DNA from: Candidatus Scalinduaceae bacterium
GTDB lineage: Bacteria; Planctomycetota; Brocadiia; Brocadiales; Scalinduaceae
DNA length: 32,000 nt
Assembly (NCBI GenBank): GCA_046757465.1
Contig: JBHHYH010000017.1
Coordinates: forward strand, 10,752-42,751
Reading direction: 5' to 3'
Shown piece by piece: positions 16,483-32,000 of the stretch. The translations under genes were made by a program, and so were the position numbers. Every line of letters starts with the position of its first letter. Positions within the stretch are counted from its first letter, which is position 1. The notes beneath the pieces are model-generated. The model was not told where the DNA came from. It searched no databases and saw only the letters and a list, made by a program, of their open reading frames with translations.

Positions 16483-16938
16483 TCAATCCTTTAGAGATTC
16501 TCTTTCGGCTACACCAAAACTTAATGTAGCCTTCGAAACGATCTTTTCTCCCACTCTGGCTATGCCCTTCACTATCGCTGCATTAGAAACAACTTTTTCG
16601 GTATTGATTTCTAAAATAAGTTGGTCGCCTGGAAAGACTGGTTTTGAGAAGCGGACGTTAGCCGAGGCCAACAAAAAGACCTTGTCTTTGTCCTTGTCAG
16701 CATCAAAACTCTTTCTAAAGAGTATGATTGATGCTTGGGCCATGGCTTCTAAGATTAAGACTCCTGGCATTATGGCAAAATCCGGAAAGTGTCCAACGAA
16801 GAACGATTCATTACCGGAAATATTCTTTAAACAAACAATTTTGCTTTCCTTCTGAAACTCAACAACTTTATCAATAAATAAGAACGGATATTTTTGAGGA
16901 ATCAACTTTCTTATTTCCTCAAAGCTCAACATTTGCAA
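16483..16938 (-). CDS. fabZ: 3-hydroxyacyl-ACP dehydratase (FabZ-type)
   Basis: Hotdog-fold motifs IPQKYPFLFIDKV and VGHFPDFAIMPGVLILEAMAQ. Confidence 0.9.
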   Translation of the reverse strand: MQMLSFEEIRKLIPQKYPFLFIDKVVEFQKESKIVCLKNISGNESFFVGHFPDFAIMPGVLILEAMAQASIILFRKSFDADKDKDKVFLLASANVRFSKPVFPGDQLILEINTEKVVSNAAIVKGIARVGEKIVSKATLSFGVAERESLKD

Positions 16939-17571: not shown

Positions 17572-18180
17572 ATGACGAAGATAAAGATTTGCGGTATAAC
17601 GAATTTAAATGATGCCATAGTCGCTGTTGACTATGGTGCAGATGCTATTGGTTTTGTATTTGCAGAAAGTGTACGAAAGGTAAACAGAAAAAAGGTTAAG
17701 GCCATTGTACGAAAATTACCGCCATTCGTTACGTTTGTGGGACTTTTTGCCAATGAAACTGCCAAAAATATCGAAAACATTTGCAGATATTGTGGTCTAA
17801 ATGCCGTGCAACTACATGGAAATGAACCGCCAGGTTTTTTAGACAAACTTAAACATTACAAGGTTATCAAGGCGTTTCGGATAAAAAATGAAAGAGACAT
17901 TGAACTAATAAATAAGTATAAACCTGATGCTGTATTGCTTGACGGATATGCAGAAAATAAAATGGGTGGTACAGGCGCCTCTTTTGACTGGAAGATTGTT
18001 AAAAAATTAAAGACCTCAAGCCCAATAATAATAGCAGGAGGCTTAACACACTTAAATGTCTCGCGTGCTATAAAGATTGCAAGACCCTATGGCGTTGATG
18101 TTTCCTCCGGTGTAGAAATCAAACCTGGAAAAAAGGATAGGCAATTAATTAAAAAATTTATCGATGCCGTAAATGGGTAG
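17572..18180 (+). CDS. trpF: Phosphoribosylanthranilate isomerase
   Basis: N-terminal KICGIT, VQLHG and GGTGxxFDW motifs. Length of 202 aa fits. Confidence 0.9.
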   Translation: MTKIKICGITNLNDAIVAVDYGADAIGFVFAESVRKVNRKKVKAIVRKLPPFVTFVGLFANETAKNIENICRYCGLNAVQLHGNEPPGFLDKLKHYKVIKAFRIKNERDIELINKYKPDAVLLDGYAENKMGGTGASFDWKIVKKLKTSSPIIIAGGLTHLNVSRAIKIARPYGVDVSSGVEIKPGKKDRQLIKKFIDAVNG

Positions 18181-18185
18181 TTCTT

Positions 18186-19499
18186 TCAAAATTCATTTGT
18201 AACACCAAACAGCGTTAAGTCTGTAGAGTCTACGATATCTACATTGGTAAGCTTACCCAGTAGCGAAGAGGCCCCGCCGAATACGACAATCTGGTTTTGC
18301 CTTGTCCTGCCTGTTAATTTGCTTTCATCAGTCTTGCTTGTTCCTTTCACCATGACCTCGACTGATTTTCCAATCATCTCTTTATTATCTTCCGCACTTA
18401 TCTCACTCTGCAAATCTAACAATATCTGATTTCTCCTTTTTTTAATTTCCTCCGGTACGTCATCCTTTAATTCCTTAGCTGCAGTTCCCGTTCGCGGTGA
18501 GTATTTAAATATAAAGCAGTTTTGATAACGCACATCCCTCATCAGACTTACGGTATCTTCAAAATCGTCTTCCGTTTCTCCCGGGAAGCCCACAATAAAG
18601 TCACTGGCAATCGTAATGTCAGGTACCAGGGACCTTGCCATTTCAACGAGTTCTCTATAATATTCAGATGTATATTGGCGTCTCATCCTTTCCAATATCC
18701 TGTCTGAACCAGACTGTGCCGGCATGTGTAAATTTTCGCAAACTTTGGGCAGTTCGCCAACGGCTTCTAATATATCTTTGGTCATATCCCCTGGATGTGA
18801 GGTAACAAACCTTATCCTCTCTATACCTTCTATTGGATCTAACCTTCTAAGCAGGGTAGCCAGAGTAGTATTTCCATTCAATCCTTTTCCATAAGAATTT
18901 ACATTCTGTCCTAACAACATGACTTCTTTACAGCCATCATCTGCAAGGTCTTTAACTTCGTTTATTACGTCTTCAACGGGTCTGCTGAACTCGCGTCCTC
19001 TTACATACGGTACAATGCAATACGAACAATAATTGTCGCATCCTCTCATGACAGATACAAATGCCTTGTACCGATTTGGTCTTTGAGTAATCAACCTGTC
19101 AAAACTTACTTCTCCGTCTTCATCAATAGCCAGAATGCGTTTATTACTTCCGTTTATTTCTTCGAGTAATTCAGGAAGTTTTGAGAACATCCTCGTACCG
19201 CATATGAGGTTGACGTGTGGCATACGCTTAAATATTTTTTCTCCATCATTTTGTGCCATACACCCCAGGACGCCAAGGATTAAGCCAGGGTTCTTTTCCT
19301 TTTGATCTCTTAAACTGCCTAGTTGGGAATATACCTTGTGTTCGGCCTTATGGCGTACGCTACAAGTATTCAGGAGGATAACGTCCGCGGCTTTTTCATC
19401 TTCGGTAAACGTATAACCTTCCTTCACAAGAGAGCCTACGGATAACTCCGAATCCAGCTTATTCATCTGGCACCCATAGGTTTTTAGAAAAACCTTCAT
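18186..19499 (-). CDS. miaB: tRNA methylthiotransferase (MiaB family)
   Basis: MTTase N-terminal domain (KTYGCQMN). Radical SAM motif CDNYCSYC. C-terminal TRAM-like domain. Confidence 0.85.
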   Translation of the reverse strand: MKVFLKTYGCQMNKLDSELSVGSLVKEGYTFTEDEKAADVILLNTCSVRHKAEHKVYSQLGSLRDQKEKNPGLILGVLGCMAQNDGEKIFKRMPHVNLICGTRMFSKLPELLEEINGSNKRILAIDEDGEVSFDRLITQRPNRYKAFVSVMRGCDNYCSYCIVPYVRGREFSRPVEDVINEVKDLADDGCKEVMLLGQNVNSYGKGLNGNTTLATLLRRLDPIEGIERIRFVTSHPGDMTKDILEAVGELPKVCENLHMPAQSGSDRILERMRRQYTSEYYRELVEMARSLVPDITIASDFIVGFPGETEDDFEDTVSLMRDVRYQNCFIFKYSPRTGTAAKELKDDVPEEIKKRRNQILLDLQSEISAEDNKEMIGKSVEVMVKGTSKTDESKLTGRTRQNQIVVFGGASSLLGKLTNVDIVDSTDLTLFGVTNEF

Positions 19500-21602: not shown

Positions 21603-22478
21603 CTATGCCCTTTCTTCCCGCATCAAGTGAAGATGCTTAGTTAAAGTAGCATCTATCTGATCCATAGAGAAAGGTTTTATAATAATATCATCAGCTCCCA
21701 AGCTTGTTACGTCTTTAGTGACTAGAGGATCCTTCACAGATGTTACGATGATGACCCGAGTCTTTGTTTTTAATTTTTTTATCTCTTTTAATATCTCCAT
21801 ACCGTCTATCTTAGGCATAACCAAATCTAACATTACAATATCAGGTTTTACTTTTGAGAAAAGTGTCATGGCCTTCTCTGGATTGCAGCAGGTATGGACT
21901 TCAAAACCCCGGGGCGTTAACATGGCTTCTAATAAATCACAACTTGATTTTTCATCATCTATAGCGAGTATTTTTATTTCGGCTGGTTTGTATTTTTCCT
22001 TTATACCCGATTTTTGTGCTTTGTCCGCATGTTGATTTGTGCCTTCTGTCTTTTTGGTCCCTTCTCTTTTAAGCTCACCTGCACTCCTTGGTAATGGGCG
22101 AATTTTGCGTCTTTTAAGTACTTCCCCTATCTTCGTTTTTAATTGTTCGGCGGTAAGCGGCTTTGTAAGATAGTCTTCGCTATATCGTTGCATTGCTTTC
22201 ATCTTTGAACGTTCGCTGTCTTCAGCTGTTAGCATAACAACAGGTATGGGCATGGTTTTGTCATCCTTTTTAAGAGATTTTAGGACTTCGAAACCATCCA
22301 CTTTCGGCATTCTGATATCAAGTAGTATCAAATCCGGTTTAAGCCTTCGAGCAGCATAATGACCGCGTTTTCCTTCATTTTCTACCATAACCTGATATTC
22401 ACCACTGCCTTCAAGACTCGCCTTTACAACCTCTGTAACATTTTTGTCATCATCGATAATCAGTATCTTTTTTTCCAT
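21603..22478 (-). CDS. Tandem receiver (REC-linker-REC) response regulator without output domain
   Basis: Two receiver cores (ILIIDDD...DLILLDIRMP...LTKP and ILAIDDE...DIVMLDLVMP...IIKP) joined by a K/E-rich linker. Confidence 0.85.
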   Translation of the reverse strand: MEKKILIIDDDKNVTEVVKASLEGSGEYQVMVENEGKRGHYAARRLKPDLILLDIRMPKVDGFEVLKSLKKDDKTMPIPVVMLTAEDSERSKMKAMQRYSEDYLTKPLTAEQLKTKIGEVLKRRKIRPLPRSAGELKREGTKKTEGTNQHADKAQKSGIKEKYKPAEIKILAIDDEKSSCDLLEAMLTPRGFEVHTCCNPEKAMTLFSKVKPDIVMLDLVMPKIDGMEILKEIKKLKTKTRVIIVTSVKDPLVTKDVTSLGADDIIIKPFSMDQIDATLTKHLHLMREERA

Positions 22479-23019: not shown

Positions 23020-23490
23020 CCCTTTTTAAAGACCCCTGCCTCAAATGCCAAAATTGCTTTCTTAACCCTTTCTGTACCCGTCTCCCTTGCCTTTTTTTTA
23101 ATTCTTTAAAAACCTGGCAATCGTTTTAACAAATTCTTTGGTATCAATGGGTTTGGAGATGAACGCATCACAACCAGCATTCATTATCATTTTTTTTTCT
23201 TCCTTCATTGTGCTGGCTGAACAGACTATAAGAGTTATATTCTTTGTTATGGAATATTGTTTAAACTTTCTAACTAATTCTACCCCTCCTATATCCGGAA
23301 GCCCAGAGTCCAATAATATTAGATCCGGTATTTCTGACTTAGCCATGTTAAACCCCTCTTTTCCATTGACAGCTTGAAGGATTAAATAACCCTCATCCTC
23401 AAGGAGGTCACTGAACAACTCCATATTCATTGCATTGTCTTCGATGATAAGTATTCTTTCTTTAGCCATTCTTCCTCCTTAAGGGAATAG
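23020..23490. repeat. Direct repeat copy B (471 bp)
   Basis: See copy A. The few mismatches cluster at the 5' end of the REC gene. A 58-bp unique spacer (22962-23019) separates the copies. Confidence 0.9.
23098..23469 (-). CDS. Single-domain response regulator (CheY-like), duplicate copy B
   Basis: Same motifs as copy A. The start overlaps the histidine kinase stop by 8 nt. Confidence 0.85.
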   Translation of the reverse strand: MAKERILIIEDNAMNMELFSDLLEDEGYLILQAVNGKEGFNMAKSEIPDLILLDSGLPDIGGVELVRKFKQYSITKNITLIVCSASTMKEEKKMIMNAGCDAFISKPIDTKEFVKTIARFLKN

Positions 23491-26305
23491 TGAAGATAAA
23501 AGTGCTTCCTTTTCCGAATTCGCTCTCAACCCAGATCTTTCCGCCATGTAACTCCACTAGCTCTTTGGTTAAGACCAACCCCAATCCGGTGCCCCCGTGT
23601 TTTTGTGTATACTCACTCTCAATTTGGCGAAAGGTCTCAAAAAGTTTATCCATATCTTCTTCTTTTATGCCGATACCGGTATCGACCACTGAAACCCGTA
23701 GTTCCTCATCCTTAATATCAGCCCTGACGTCTACCTTGCCGCCTTCAGGGGTAAATTTTATAGCGTTGGATAGCAGGTTATACATAATCTGCTTTATCTT
23801 CCTCTCATCAGCTTTTAAAACAGATATCTCAGGTACAATATGGCTCTCTATGGTAATTTTTAATCTAAAAGCTAACTCCTTGAGGATAGTTTTAATGCCC
23901 TCTATGAGTTTTGGAAATGAGAATTCACTCGACACAAGTTCTAGCTTGCCAGCCTCAATTTTTGAAAGGTCTAGAATGTCATTGATTAAGCTTAAGAGAT
24001 CCTTGCCTCCTACGAGGATATTAGTTATGTATCTGGCTTGTTTCTCAGTAAGCTTGCCAACTCTTTCACTTTGCAATACATCGGCAAAGCCAATAACGGA
24101 ATTTAAAGGAGTTCTTAGCTCGTGAGACATATTGGCTAAGAATTCAGACTTGGCGCTGCTGGCCTTCTTTAAATGTTTGTTAAGCGTAACAAGTTCTCTA
24201 GTTCTTTCCTCAACTTTCTTTTCTAACTCTTCTCTTGCCTGGTTGTTATCATCTAACATACTTACCATTATTTCGCGGGATTTTACTGCCTCTTTTAAGG
24301 TCTGATCCAACTTCTCCTCCATCTTCCTTCTTTGTGTTATGTCAGACATAATATGACAGAACCCGACAAGAGTTCCCTTTTCATCCAGCACCGGATATGC
24401 AATTACATCGAGCCAACTATCACCAACCAGTAAAATACTGCTTTCTCTTTTATGTGTCTTCATCACCTTTACGGTAGGGCACTCTCCAATAGGTTCTGCC
24501 GCACCGTAAATAAATTTACAGCAAGACGTGCCGACAATTTCTCCAAATGGCTTTTTTGCCATATTAACCATTGCCTTGTTGCACCTTACAATCTTTCCGT
24601 CCTTATCTAGAAGGCTAATAGCATCACCCATAGCATCGAATGTTGTCCGCCACTCTCTTGCAGAATTACTCAGCGCTTCATCTAACTTCTTGCGCTCGGT
24701 GATGTCTTCTGCAACTTTAAAGAAATAGGTAGCGTCATCTTCAGGATTCTTTATAGATGAGATGGATGCGGACTCCCAGTAGAGCTCACCACTTTTTTTC
24801 TTATTATGAAATTCACCGCTCCATGTACCTCCTGTGGTAATAGTCTCCCAGAGTCGTTTGTATTCTTCGGTTGATTTTTCGCCCGATTTTAAGATGCGCG
24901 GGTTCTGCCCGATGACATCTTCTGGGGTGTAGCCTGTCACTTGTGTAAACTTTGGATTAACATATTCGATGTTGCCTTTGGCGTCCGTAATCATAACCAT
25001 ACTAGGACTTCGTTCGACTACACTAGATAACTTTTGAATCTGCTCTTCTGCCTTCTTGCGCTTGGTGATCTCTCTCGCGTGAATGCGCAAAACTTTAAAC
25101 TCTGGTATAAGATATATATCTTCTTCAAATGTTAAACTCCCTATTTTTATAATGCGGTATAATCGTGTTTCCATTTTTCCCCTTAAAGCTTTAATGATTT
25201 CATTTAAGTCCTCTGGTAAAAATAGGGTTAAGTCTTCTTTGAGACCTGACTTCTTTAGAACCTTAGAAGCTGCATTGTTGTGAAAAATAATGCCCCCAGA
25301 AAGATTTATCTCTAAAATAGGGCTGATATCCAACTGTGGGAAGGAGGCAAGGTGGCTAATTTCTTTTTCCGCCATCTTGCGCTCGGTGATGTTTTCCTTA
25401 ACAGCTATGAAATGAGTTATAATACCTTCTGAGTTTTTGATAGGTGAAATAGATGCGGACTCCCAATACAGTTCCTTGTTCTTCTTTTTGTTACAAAATT
25501 CTCCACGCCATTCACCACCTGACGTAATAATCTTCCATAAACGTTCGTATTCATCAGGTGGTGTCTTACCCGATTTTAAGATACGTGGATTTTTACCAAT
25601 AGCCTCTTCGAATGTATATCCAGTCAGTTGAGTGAACTTGGGATTAACATATTCGATGTTACCTTCAGTATCTGTGATCAAGACCGTGGACGGGCTTTGT
25701 TCTATGGCGTGAGAAAGCTTGTGTATCTGCTCTTCTGCCTTTTTACGCTTAGTGATGTCTCTTATTATGCCTATTGCATTCCACTTGCCTCTTATCTTTA
25801 CTGCCGAAAGAGATAATTCTATTGGAATTTCTGCTCCATCTTTCCTGACAGCCGCAACTTCTACCGTTTTTCCTATCATATTACCCACTCCTGTAGTCTT
25901 GAATCTTTCGAACCCTTTTAAATGTCTTTCGCGGAATCTCTCTGGTATAATTAATTGTTGTAGGTTTTCCCCTACGGTTTCCTCACTTGAGTAACCAAAG
26001 ATTCTTTCGGAGGCTTTATTCCAATAAGAAATCCTTTCATCATTACTCAACATAATGATAGCATCTTGAGCTGAAGTGGTTATTTCTCTGAACTTCTCTT
26101 CACTTTCACGTAACATATGCTCCATGTGTTTGCGCTTCTTTATTTCCTGCATTAAGGCATTTTTTGCTATCTCTAATTCACTGATTAGAGCCTTAGATTC
26201 TTCTTTCCTGATCTCAGATTCCAAAGTTAGGTGAGCTTTTTTGTGCAGCGATTCTTTCGGGGTTTCAACAGACAACTTATTGTTACTATCAGGTGAAGAT
26301 TTCAT
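23462..26305 (-). CDS. Multi-PAS sensor histidine kinase
   Basis: N-terminal coiled coil. Four PAS-type modules separated by ITxRKKAEE linkers. H-box MSHELRTPLN (His728, codon 24122-24124). HATPase boxes NLLSNAIKFTP, DTGIGI, GGTGLGL. Confidence 0.9.
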   Translation of the reverse strand: MKSSPDSNNKLSVETPKESLHKKAHLTLESEIRKEESKALISELEIAKNALMQEIKKRKHMEHMLRESEEKFREITTSAQDAIIMLSNDERISYWNKASERIFGYSSEETVGENLQQLIIPERFRERHLKGFERFKTTGVGNMIGKTVEVAAVRKDGAEIPIELSLSAVKIRGKWNAIGIIRDITKRKKAEEQIHKLSHAIEQSPSTVLITDTEGNIEYVNPKFTQLTGYTFEEAIGKNPRILKSGKTPPDEYERLWKIITSGGEWRGEFCNKKKNKELYWESASISPIKNSEGIITHFIAVKENITERKMAEKEISHLASFPQLDISPILEINLSGGIIFHNNAASKVLKKSGLKEDLTLFLPEDLNEIIKALRGKMETRLYRIIKIGSLTFEEDIYLIPEFKVLRIHAREITKRKKAEEQIQKLSSVVERSPSMVMITDAKGNIEYVNPKFTQVTGYTPEDVIGQNPRILKSGEKSTEEYKRLWETITTGGTWSGEFHNKKKSGELYWESASISSIKNPEDDATYFFKVAEDITERKKLDEALSNSAREWRTTFDAMGDAISLLDKDGKIVRCNKAMVNMAKKPFGEIVGTSCCKFIYGAAEPIGECPTVKVMKTHKRESSILLVGDSWLDVIAYPVLDEKGTLVGFCHIMSDITQRRKMEEKLDQTLKEAVKSREIMVSMLDDNNQAREELEKKVEERTRELVTLNKHLKKASSAKSEFLANMSHELRTPLNSVIGFADVLQSERVGKLTEKQARYITNILVGGKDLLSLINDILDLSKIEAGKLELVSSEFSFPKLIEGIKTILKELAFRLKITIESHIVPEISVLKADERKIKQIMYNLLSNAIKFTPEGGKVDVRADIKDEELRVSVVDTGIGIKEEDMDKLFETFRQIESEYTQKHGGTGLGLVLTKELVELHGGKIWVESEFGKGSTFIFTIPLRRKNG

Positions 26306-27287: not shown

Positions 27288-28847
27288 TTATGACTTTTTA
27301 TCACCCAGCCTTGCCTCCAGTTTCTCTACCCTCTTTTTTAATTCCACTATTCGCTCTTCACGACCGATGTTTGCCTTGTAAAATACCTCGAGTTCGTGTA
27401 AATGTTTTTCTCTCTCCTTTTCCATCTTTTTGCGTTCGGTGATCTCAGCACGAAGTTGCTGTTCATCTACCTTTAATTGTTGATTAGAGGCCCTTAGTTG
27501 TTGCTCGCTTGCCCTTAGCTGCTGGTTTGTGGCTTTTAGCTGCTGCTCGCTCGCCTGTAGTTGTTGGTTTGCGGCTTTTAGCTGCTGCTCGCTCGCCCTT
27601 AGCTGCTGCCCGCTCGCTTTTAACTGTTGGTTAGCAGCTTCCAGCATCTCTTCAGCCTTTTTGCGCTCGGTAATCTCTTCATTCAACTTATCACGCGATG
27701 TGATGATTGTTTTTAAGTTATCCGTCATTTGATTGAAGGCAACAGCCAATTTGCCAAGTTCATCTCTGGATTTAATATTCACCTTAGCAGTCAGGTCACC
27801 TTTGCCAACAGTACTTGATGCATCTGCCAGCTTGCGGATAGGGTTGGCTATGCCTCGGGAAAAAGCTACGGCGACAATCACCACTAAAATGCCAATAATA
27901 ATCAAAACAAAAAATAATTTTATTCTTAAAGCAGTCACGGGAGCAAATGCTTCTTTTGTATCAATTTTACCCACTATCCCCCATTTCATTGATGGAAGAT
28001 GTTTCCAAACTGCCAGTATTTCTTCCTTTCTATAATCTATAGATAAACCTTTACCTCCCTTCCCTTGCACAGATTCCTGGATTGGTAGTGCCAGATTGCT
28101 TCCTAGAATAACTGTAGGCGGATCATTAGTATGACGTAACTGAGTAATAAATTTTATTTTATGACCCACCTTCTGACCAAGTAATATTTCCCCCGTCTCT
28201 CCCAATCCTTCTTGATCATTTGTAATATCATTCAAAACTTGAGCTCTTACTTTAAATAAAACTGCTCCGGCAAACTTCGCATCTTCATAATCTCTGATTG
28301 CCTGGAGAAAAATCAGGAATTCTTCTCCCGTTAAGGGATCAGTATTAAAACCGCCAAAGAATGTTCCCTTTGACTTTACACCTTGTAAGTAATGATCAGG
28401 CATCTTCTTACCGACAAGTTCTTTGTTTGTGTTAGCAACAATAGTTCCCTTAGTATCCCAAATACCGATAATCTCAATCGCAGTGGCTTTATCAATATCA
28501 CCATACCCACTCTTTGGCTGCATTTTCATCTCTTCAAGAATAGATTCAATATTGGCCTGGATTTTAGCAATATCTTCTGGGTCATTAACCCCACTTGATT
28601 CCAATTGTCTGGGTAAAAAAGTTCCAGCAAGTTCTTTGGCCTGCTCCTGCCGCAGTTGAATTAAGTGAGTAATATCAGACACACGTGAATTAGTGACTGC
28701 TTCCAAACTTGCGAAAGCCTGCTTTTTCAGATTAGCCCTGGCGCTATCATAGCTTATATAGCCCACAATGCCAACCGGCACAATTGAAACAACTAAAAAC
28801 AATACTATCAATTTAGTCCGCAAGCTTCTGGTAATAAAATTTGTCAT
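27288..28847 (-). CDS. Cache-HAMP membrane receptor ending in a coiled coil, with no kinase or MCP signalling domain
   Basis: TM1 (LIVLFLVVSIVPVGIVGYI). Extracytoplasmic domain of about 280 aa, of dCache size. TM2 (LFFVLIIIGILVVIVAVAF). HAMP (PIRKLADAS...ELGKLAVAFNQMTDNL). Then nine QQ heptads and a 53-aa helical tail. Confidence 0.8.
   Translation of the reverse strand: MTNFITRSLRTKLIVLFLVVSIVPVGIVGYISYDSARANLKKQAFASLEAVTNSRVSDITHLIQLRQEQAKELAGTFLPRQLESSGVNDPEDIAKIQANIESILEEMKMQPKSGYGDIDKATAIEIIGIWDTKGTIVANTNKELVGKKMPDHYLQGVKSKGTFFGGFNTDPLTGEEFLIFLQAIRDYEDAKFAGAVLFKVRAQVLNDITNDQEGLGETGEILLGQKVGHKIKFITQLRHTNDPPTVILGSNLALPIQESVQGKGGKGLSIDYRKEEILAVWKHLPSMKWGIVGKIDTKEAFAPVTALRIKLFFVLIIIGILVVIVAVAFSRGIANPIRKLADASSTVGKGDLTAKVNIKSRDELGKLAVAFNQMTDNLKTIITSRDKLNEEITERKKAEEMLEAANQQLKASGQQLRASEQQLKAANQQLQASEQQLKATNQQLRASEQQLRASNQQLKVDEQQLRAEITERKKMEKEREKHLHELEVFYKANIGREERIVELKKRVEKLEARLGDKKS
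27450..27638 (-). repeat. 21-bp tandem repeat (9 units, 42-bp higher-order alternation) encoding A-x-x-Q-Q-L-K/R heptads
   Basis: The DNA units ttagctgctgctcgctcgcc / ttagttgttggtttgcggct recur head to tail. Translation: AANQQLK ASGQQLR ASEQQLK AANQQLQ ASEQQLK ATNQQLR ASEQQLR ASNQQLK VDEQQLR. Confidence 0.9.
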
Positions 28848-30159: not shown

Positions 30160-30537
30160 CTACTTACACAATCGATTCTCAATACACGTAATCAAGTCAT
30201 CAAGTTTCACTGGTTTAGCCAAGAACGTGCAACCAGCAATATTGCTACCTGTGGATTCTGCTTCTTCCTTTTTCAATATAGCTGTTAAAAACACTATAGG
30301 AATATATTTCAAGTTCTCATCATCAAGAATCTTTGCACCGACTGCGCCTCCATCCACGTCAGGCATAACTACATCAAGTATAATCAGGTCGGGCTGAAAC
30401 TGCTGTGCCGAGGCATACGCGAGAGCCCCGACGTTTTCTTCTCTTACTTCATATTTTCCAGTTGCCTCAAGATTTTCCCTTAACATGCAAGTGAGACTTG
30501 CATCGTCGTCAACTACCAAAATCTTCTTCTTGGGCAT
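30160..30537 (-). CDS. Single-domain response regulator (CheY-like)
   Basis: ILVVDDD...DLIILDVVMPDVDG...LAKP. Confidence 0.85.
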   Translation of the reverse strand: MPKKKILVVDDDASLTCMLRENLEATGKYEVREENVGALAYASAQQFQPDLIILDVVMPDVDGGAVGAKILDDENLKYIPIVFLTAILKKEEAESTGSNIAGCTFLAKPVKLDDLITCIENRLCK

Positions 30538-31107: not shown

Positions 31108-32000
31108 CTACTTCTTAGCTTTCAGCACATTACTTATATCTCTTCTCAACTCTGAAAATTTAAAAGGTTTCTTGACAATAAAGTCCACGTTCAAGTCCTC
31201 TTTCTTTACGTCCTTTATCTCGTACCTCCAACCAGTTATTAGACCCACCCTTGGCCTTTTATCCAGCGCATCTAGCGCCTTTATTACGTCCCTTCCAGTA
31301 ACCTCTGGCATTACCAGGTCACATATCACGAGATCAAAACCATTACTTTTTGCTAGTTTGATGGCCTCAGCGCCACTGTTAACACTCCTGACTTTATGGC
31401 CCTCTTTAGTAAAGAAATTACTTAAAACCTCGCACATATCCTCCTCATCGTCCACCACCAATATATTGAGAATCCTGGCTGTCTTCTCCTTTGTTGGTTT
31501 GGAAGATATCTCAGAACGGGCAGTATTACTGGTAACCGGTAGACATATGGTTAACGTACTGCCTTTTCCCATCTCGCTTTTCACGTTTATCTTACCACCG
31601 TATCTTTTCATTATGCCGTAGCTAACGCTCATACCCAATCCACTTCCTTCAGGCCTCCTGGTAGTGAAAAAGGGGTCAAATATCCTTTTCTGCACCTCTT
31701 CGGGCATACCCTTCCCGGTGTCAGAAACACTTACAAATATGGTACAGTCACTTTTCCATGTGCAAAAGGAAAGATGGCCACCATCAGGCATTGCATCCAG
31801 GGCATTATTTATTAGATTTACCAATACCTCTTTCAACTCTACAGGATTACCCGGTAAGGGTGGTACTTCCTTGATGCCTTCCATATCTATGTAGTAGGTT
31901 ATCCCCTTAGCCTGAGCCATATTCTTCCATCTGGGCATTGTGAAACCAACCGCCTCTCTTATCAAATGCCTCATATCTACTGATACAAATCGTGATCTAT
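31108..32000 (-). CDS. Hybrid histidine kinase (HATPase + REC), 5' end outside the window
   Basis: The frame is open upstream of the listed M to the window edge. HATPase boxes NLINNALDAMP, DTGKGM, GSGLGM. C-terminal receiver VVDDEE...DLVICDLVMPEVTG...VKKP. Confidence 0.85.
   Translation of the reverse strand, partial: RSRFVSVDMRHLIREAVGFTMPRWKNMAQAKGITYYIDMEGIKEVPPLPGNPVELKEVLVNLINNALDAMPDGGHLSFCTWKSDCTIFVSVSDTGKGMPEEVQKRIFDPFFTTRRPEGSGLGMSVSYGIMKRYGGKINVKSEMGKGSTLTICLPVTSNTARSEISSKPTKEKTARILNILVVDDEEDMCEVLSNFFTKEGHKVRSVNSGAEAIKLAKSNGFDLVICDLVMPEVTGRDVIKALDALDKRPRVGLITGWRYEIKDVKKEDLNVDFIVKKPFKFSELRRDISNVLKAKK

Follow-up and report, generated by a model that had tools for sequence, protein, structure and literature searches.

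Can a CheD protein serve signalling proteins other than chemoreceptors? The question is raised by a locus of a Candidatus Scalinduaceae bacterium, in which a Cache-HAMP receptor that carries a tandem array of glutamine-rich heptads is encoded close to a cheD-like gene, here termed CheD2. The preliminary description of the analysed stretch of contig C17 (32,000 nt, hereafter the window) had proposed that the array is a multi-site substrate of the neighbouring CheD, by which a neutral helix would be turned into an acidic one. In Bacillus/Thermotoga-type systems, sites of methyl-accepting chemotaxis proteins (MCPs) are modified by CheD, which converts glutamine to glutamate. To our knowledge, covalent adaptation by the Che enzymes CheR, CheB, and CheD is thought to be limited to chemoreceptors in chemosensory arrays. 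Literature searches retrieved nothing relevant on histidine kinases as targets of CheD, on Q-rich or CheD-associated heptad arrays of kinases, or on methylation helices in proteins other than MCPs.

The source reads originate from a hydrothermal-vent metagenome study, and the genome comprises 3.3 Mb at 97% completeness. Judging from its genes, the host is probably an anammox planctomycete with Candidatus Scalindua as best named relatives. The features of the locus are compiled in Table 1.

Table 1. Features of the receptor, CheD2, and adjacent signalling genes in the window.
Feature	Position	Strand	Remarks
Single-domain response regulator	30160..30537	-	just upstream of CheD2; a response regulator is also upstream in L014
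Hybrid kinase PAS-HisKA-HATPase-RR, 986 aa (start)	31108..32000	-	candidate partner; runs past the window
CheD2, CheD-family, putative glutamine deamidase, 171 aa	29394..29909	-	intact
Cache-TM-HAMP receptor with array, 519 aa	27288..28847	-	without kinase domain
dCache_1 sensor domain	27969..28730	-	residues 40-293; Pfam
HAMP domain	27711..27863	-	residues 329-379; Pfam
EITERKK motif before the array	27660..27680	-	end of HAMP output helix
Nine-heptad Q-rich array	27450..27638	-	residues 404-466; 9 x 21-bp units
Second EITERKK motif, after the array	27426..27446	-	followed by short C-terminal coiled-coil tail
Hypothetical protein, 247 aa	26302..27045	-	just downstream of receptor, same orientation
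Four-PAS histidine kinase, 947 aa	23462..26305	-	downstream; candidate partner

The heptad array

Translation yields nine directly abutting heptads, namely AANQQLK, ASGQQLR, ASEQQLK, AANQQLQ, ASEQQLK, ATNQQLR, ASEQQLR, ASNQQLK, and VDEQQLR, exactly as they had been read before. The accompanying statement that every QQ pair is embedded in a consensus of small residues holds for 8 out of 9 pairs, which are found in the context [AS]xxQQxx[AS]; the exception is heptad 9, VDEQQLR, which starts with valine. The underlying DNA repeat is degenerate at the nucleotide level, with a period of 21 at 67% identity and a period of 42 at 83% (Tandem Repeats Finder). At Q4, Q5, and L6 of the window array the differences between units are synonymous in 20 out of 20 pairs per position, which indicates that the amino acid pattern of the heptad is maintained while its codons drift, and a comparison of the nine units resulted in a mean dN of 0.31 vs a dS of 0.95. 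On the evidence of these codons and of its recurrence in homologues (see below), the heptad pattern is selected and non-random. That the array arose by recent slippage alone was considered, but this explanation is insufficient, since most of the divergence between units at the conserved positions is synonymous.

Copy number changes of the slippage type were observed nevertheless. Run X3 of the vent study represents a related strain (approximately 95% identical), whose array has lost 21 bp by deletion and with them one heptad; run X2, from another sample of this study, contains a near-identical receptor copy of equal length (519 aa). The prediction that the copy number could vary is borne out by this shorter array and by the homologues described below, which comprise 2-20 heptads each.

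In many kinases, the output linkers of PAS and HAMP domains end with an ITERK-type motif. Besides bracketing the array of the window receptor, such motifs also flank the arrays of the partner kinases of loci L014 and L058.

A Cache-HAMP receptor without kinase

As noted in the preliminary description, the array protein has neither an MCP signalling tip nor a kinase: Pfam searches of the receptor detected no MCPsignal domain (PF00015) and no HisKA or HATPase domains. With respect to MCPs, the receptor lacks MCPsignal with its CheW/CheA-binding hairpin tip and carries the adaptation-site motif [AS]xx[EQ][EQ]xx[AS] in 8 of its 9 heptads, and it does not contain the combination of HisKA and HATPase_c that characterizes a sensor histidine kinase. 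The similarity to MCP models of NCBIfam, which extends over the HAMP-array residues 308-454, is weak and sub-threshold.

The closest homologue of the receptor is P0002 of Ca. Scalindua, with which it has the Cache sensor and HAMP domain in common (72% identity over residues 1-465). P0002 is a full Cache-HAMP-HisKA-HATPase kinase without an array; at the place of its kinase half, the window protein has the array, followed by a short coiled-coil tail, and no kinase. A broken kinase that continues downstream of the receptor was considered as well. As a tblastn search with the kinase half of P0002 matched only paralogous kinases elsewhere in the window, no kinase remnant is present downstream. Antisense ORFs are situated inside the receptor and PAS kinase genes (27733-28035, 23490-24125, and 25719-25994, all on the plus strand), and nothing marks them as genes.

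CheD2 is distinct from canonical CheD

An intact cheD had been reported about 0.5 kb upstream of the receptor on the same strand, and the gene was recovered there at a distance of 0.55 kb. Its product matches PF03975 at E=3.3e-17; the best NCBIfam model is CheD_Thtga, with the NCBIfam CheD matches remaining below the trusted cut-offs. In an alignment with T. maritima CheD (2F9Z), the active-site Cys and His are recovered within the motifs GSC and AHxMLP, respectively, both of which are conserved across the CheD2 proteins. The fold and the catalytic Cys/His thus assign the gene to the CheD family, but its placement does not, as it is the second CheD copy of the genome and is located on C17 outside any che cluster. 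The genome encodes one MCPsignal protein (C7), two copies each of CheD, CheR, CheB, and CheW, and one CheA, with the che-related contigs being C7, C68, C51, C40, and C17. The canonical che cluster on C68 comprises CheA, CheD1, CheC, and CheR, and both CheR genes reside in che clusters on contigs other than C17.

CheD2 of the window and the canonical CheD1 of the same genome are 26% identical. CheD2 proteins share 35-49% identity among each other and 23-29% with CheD1, and in the tree they form a clade with a support of 100/96 from which all canonical CheDs, including CheD1 of this genome, are excluded. Members of the clade occur in the Planctomycetota, Bacteroidota, Zixiibacteriota, and others. 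The nearest relatives of the window protein belong to other planctomycete families, Bacteroidales, Zixiibacteriota, and an unassigned lineage; the sampled members of the same order possess canonical CheD only.

Association of CheD2 with heptad arrays

A signalling protein with a Q-heptad array adjoins CheD2 in 10 out of 10 loci examined (the window; L014/L015; L021/L023; L022; and the planctomycete genomes G014, G222, G284, G101, and G274), whereas no array was found near canonical CheD genes (0 out of 34, of which 24 were searched within 1.5 kb and 10, including the CheD1 cluster of this genome, within 8 kb). Usually the partner is a PAS histidine kinase. In L014 and L015 it is a PAS-HWE kinase whose two arrays lie between ITERK motifs, and its gene follows those of a response regulator and then CheD, in the same order as the array receptor gene of the window. 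Hybrid PAS kinase-response regulator proteins are the partners in the Bacteroidales loci L021 and L023 and in the Zixiibacteriota locus L022, and PAS kinases in the five planctomycete genomes. Upstream of CheD2 in Bacteroidales, 181-aa proteins are encoded for which no Pfam or NCBIfam match was obtained.

A search for the array module in 401 genomes of the phylum returned strong Q-array matches in exactly the five CheD2-bearing genomes and in G159, in which no CheD was detectable. The resulting co-occurrence of CheD2 and arrays (Fisher p=7e-11) is overstated, because related genomes are not independent, and it assumes that the CheD and array scans covered one sample of 401 genomes; both samples were evenly drawn and their handles overlap. 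Taken together, the link between CheD and the array that the preliminary description had drawn from a single locus recurs wherever CheD2 was examined, and the idea at its centre, that CheD acts on the array, is well supported in the form of a genomic association that is conserved across phyla.

The heptad A-x-[N/E]-Q-Q-L-[R/K] recurs as 101 heptads in 10 proteins of at least 4 phyla, with the full consensus being A-[A/S/T/G]-[N/E]-Q-Q-L-[R/K/Q]. Conservation amounts to 91% for A at position 1, 91% and 94% for Q at positions 4 and 5, and 99% for L at position 6, and at positions 4-5 glutamate takes the place of glutamine at 6-9%. The QQ register is hence retained in the homologues, for which this had been suggested as a check, even though the number of repeats differs. 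The window receptor matches the partner kinases nowhere but in the array module and the ITERK motifs on either side of it, which implies that the module was grafted into unrelated proteins, namely a Cache-HAMP receptor in the window and PAS kinases in other lineages. The arrays are inserted in register, as whole heptads, in the linker helix that follows the ITERK motif. Near none of the CheD2-array modules were genes for CheR, CheB-methylesterase, CheC, CheW, CheA, or an MCP found, the only such neighbours being receiver domains.

Two further types of arrays were encountered. E-type arrays (S-x-E-E-L-x) are located on histidine kinases of G380 (C34:1091016-1091243) and G079 (C92), both genomes without CheD2, and could be regarded as "pre-deamidated" equivalents. 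The P0033 family (L016-L018) consists of hybrid HisKA-HATPase-RR kinases with an N-terminal array of approximately 20 Q/E heptads, which Pfam relates to tropomyosin- and CCDC-like families; on the short contigs available, no CheD adjoins them.

Predicted structure, register, and charge

Residues 361-514 were modelled by AlphaFold from the single sequence as one continuous helix, which extends from HAMP AS2 across the array (pLDDT approximately 90). The model was used for this helix only, as the Cache domain is unreliable (pLDDT <50). Insertion of whole heptads preserves the helical register. Two registers were considered: with a = N/E and d = L, as in GCN4, the QQ pair occupies positions b and c, and with a = L and d = A it occupies f and g. 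In either register the QQ pair is predicted to be exposed with small residues alongside. Adaptation sites of MCPs occupy the solvent-exposed heptad positions b/c and tune the packing of the bundle (PMC11291126), and the proposed likeness in site geometry between array and MCPs agrees with this arrangement. Deamidation of all 18 glutamines would shift the net charge of the array from approximately +3 to approximately -15, as counted from the sequence. Modification may also switch the rigidity of the helix, as the preliminary description had suggested. A predicted complex of CheD2 with receptor residues 380-480 reached an ipSAE of 0.01, a value that weighs neither for nor against binding.

Genomic neighbourhood

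In this part of the window, genes of two-component systems are densely packed and include an operon-like run. On the minus strand these are transcribed in the order hybrid kinase, response regulator, CheD2, array receptor, 247-aa protein, four-PAS kinase, and several response regulators. The response regulator next to CheD2 is possibly its regulator. For the 247-aa protein neither Pfam nor NCBIfam gave a match. The four-PAS kinase is a distant homologue of the array-bearing kinases of other lineages. The hybrid kinase (C17, locus L012, 1860-4820) is a homologue of array-bearing hybrid kinases and has 40% identity to a PAS-HK-RR protein of Ca. Scalindua; a 288-aa ORF with HATPase and RR domains (31108-31974, minus strand) represents its C-terminal part. 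Among the several stand-alone response regulators lies a gene for a 291-aa protein (21603-22478, minus strand) that has its receiver domain at the C-terminus and for which a PDE8A_N-like match was obtained.

In comparison to the Cache-kinase locus of Scalindua, the window contains the same components in a rearranged order with CheD2 inserted, which suggests a joint acquisition of CheD2 and the array module. Beyond the window, a gene of the PF05635 family (23S rRNA-intervening-sequence protein; L012, 5026-5391) adjoins the hybrid kinase. In the locus of Ca. Scalindua, a PF05635 gene adjoins the Cache kinase as well, which points to a rearranged shared neighbourhood. Nearby housekeeping genes encode a FabA-like dehydratase (16483-16938), PRAI/TrpF (17572-18180), and MiaB (18186-19499), the latter being 89% identical to that of Ca. 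Scalindua and having served to place the genome taxonomically.

Discussion

Like the methylation/deamidation helices of MCPs such as E. coli Tsr and B. subtilis McpA, the arrays present exposed Gln/Glu pairs flanked by small residues, and like MCP adaptation sites their heptads are a natural, genome-encoded mixture of Q and E. Unlike MCPs, array proteins have no MCP signalling domain, no coupling to CheW/CheA, and no CheR or CheB nearby, and their sites are identical tandem heptads (3-20) in the linkers of histidine kinases or, in the case of the window, after the HAMP domain of a kinase-less receptor. The position of the array in the helix leaving the sensor, after ITERK and with the register kept, resembles that of signalling-helix, PAS Jalpha, and HAMP output linkers. 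We know of no ordinary kinase linkers with repetitive Q-rich arrays or with a dedicated modifying enzyme. CheD2 itself shares the fold family and the GSC-Cys and AH-His motifs with CheD of B. subtilis and T. maritima (PF03975; 2F9Z); unlike CheD, it constitutes a clade of its own, occurs outside che clusters without a CheC partner, and adjoins Q-array proteins throughout.

We therefore propose, from comparative sequence data, that the CheD2-array system represents Che-type adaptation chemistry on non-MCP sensors. CheD2 would have moved from chemoreceptor clusters to array-bearing signalling proteins as its new partners, the arrays being placed behind ITERK in the helix that leaves the sensor domain, which is HAMP in the window receptor and PAS in the majority of its relatives. 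It would bind the array helices and deamidate their exposed QQ pairs to glutamate, which is the reaction of CheD at the adaptation sites of chemoreceptors. The neutral helix would thereby become acidic, the packing of the coiled coil would shift, and the output of the attached kinase would change, so that a two-component sensor may acquire a covalent multi-site switch for adaptation or memory. Modification of the arrays by CheD2 is probable in our opinion, and to the reading of CheD2 as a dedicated deamidase (or binding regulator) of arrays by which the charge of sensor kinases would be switched in an adaptation-like manner we assign a probability of roughly 60%. Points against this reading are the Q-array genome G159 with no detectable CheD and the E-type arrays in genomes without CheD2. 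A precedent for the proposed chemistry is that CheD deamidates McpA in vitro and also a glutamine engineered into a helix of CheC (PMC3513319), and hence can act on non-MCP helices.

Catalysis is not the only conceivable function. CheD2 could be a non-catalytic regulator that binds to the array helices, with the glutamines serving as a docking surface rather than being converted. In B. subtilis chemotaxis, binding by CheD matters more than its deamidase activity (PMC3513319), for which reason catalysis may not be the point of CheD2 either, and the association data fit binding as well as catalysis. If CheD2 only bound the helices, decay of the active site would be expected, but CheD2 has retained the motifs of the catalytic Cys and His, and we regard binding alone as unlikely. 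The opposite extension, a full MCP-like adaptation cycle in which deamidated arrays are subsequently methylated by CheR, had been raised as a possibility in the preliminary description and could draw on the two CheR and two CheB of the genome and on a geometry that matches MCP methylation sites. Since CheR, CheB, CheW, and CheA are not found nearby, such a cycle is absent from these loci. No CheR or CheB gene is situated near any CheD2-array module, by which CheR methylation is ruled out as a conserved feature of the arrays, and with the CheR genes of this genome confined to che clusters on other contigs it is highly improbable altogether.

Other explanations dispense with an interaction or with a function of the window protein. 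The array might be a length-tunable coiled-coil spacer that arose by repeat expansion, with CheD2 co-travelling as a mobile module without direct interaction. The varying number of heptads, both among homologues and in the related strain, and the existence of Q- and E-arrays in genomes without CheD2 are compatible with a spacer, but we consider it very unlikely given that CheD2 is found beside arrays in several phyla with partners as varied as Cache-HAMP, PAS-HWE, and hybrid PAS-HK-RR proteins and that the heptad pattern is kept at the protein level despite codon drift. For the window receptor in particular, it could be presumed that recombination of an array into a Scalindua-type Cache kinase left a decaying remnant with no current signalling role. 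The kinase domain of the Scalindua homologue is indeed lost, the neighbourhood is rearranged with respect to the Scalindua locus, and canonical CheD only is present in the sampled members of the order. Yet the ORF is intact, the same 519-aa protein is found in a second sample, the Cache and HAMP domains are complete, and the gene lies in the operon-like run with CheD2 and kinases, which renders decay quite unlikely.

Returning to the proposed deamidation switch, the window receptor would be a case in which the array was grafted on and the kinase was lost. As the protein has no kinase, any signalling effect must pass through a partner, and it probably acts via a nearby partner kinase or works as a modifiable decoy or sink. 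A more far-reaching version is tentative, though still plausible: CheD2 may be an irreversible multi-site deamidase for sensor kinases, its arrays being charge switches that integrate past signalling, slippage tuning the number of sites, and chemotaxis adaptation chemistry having been exported into phosphorelays.

Modular repeat arrays can evidently be grafted into new signalling proteins, and in the window receptor the array appears to have replaced the kinase of a Cache receptor. If the proposed function is true, Che adaptation chemistry would have been carried into two-component systems in several phyla, and the linker between sensor and output would provide sensor kinases with a memory or charge switch that is covalent and multi-site and that may be irreversible.
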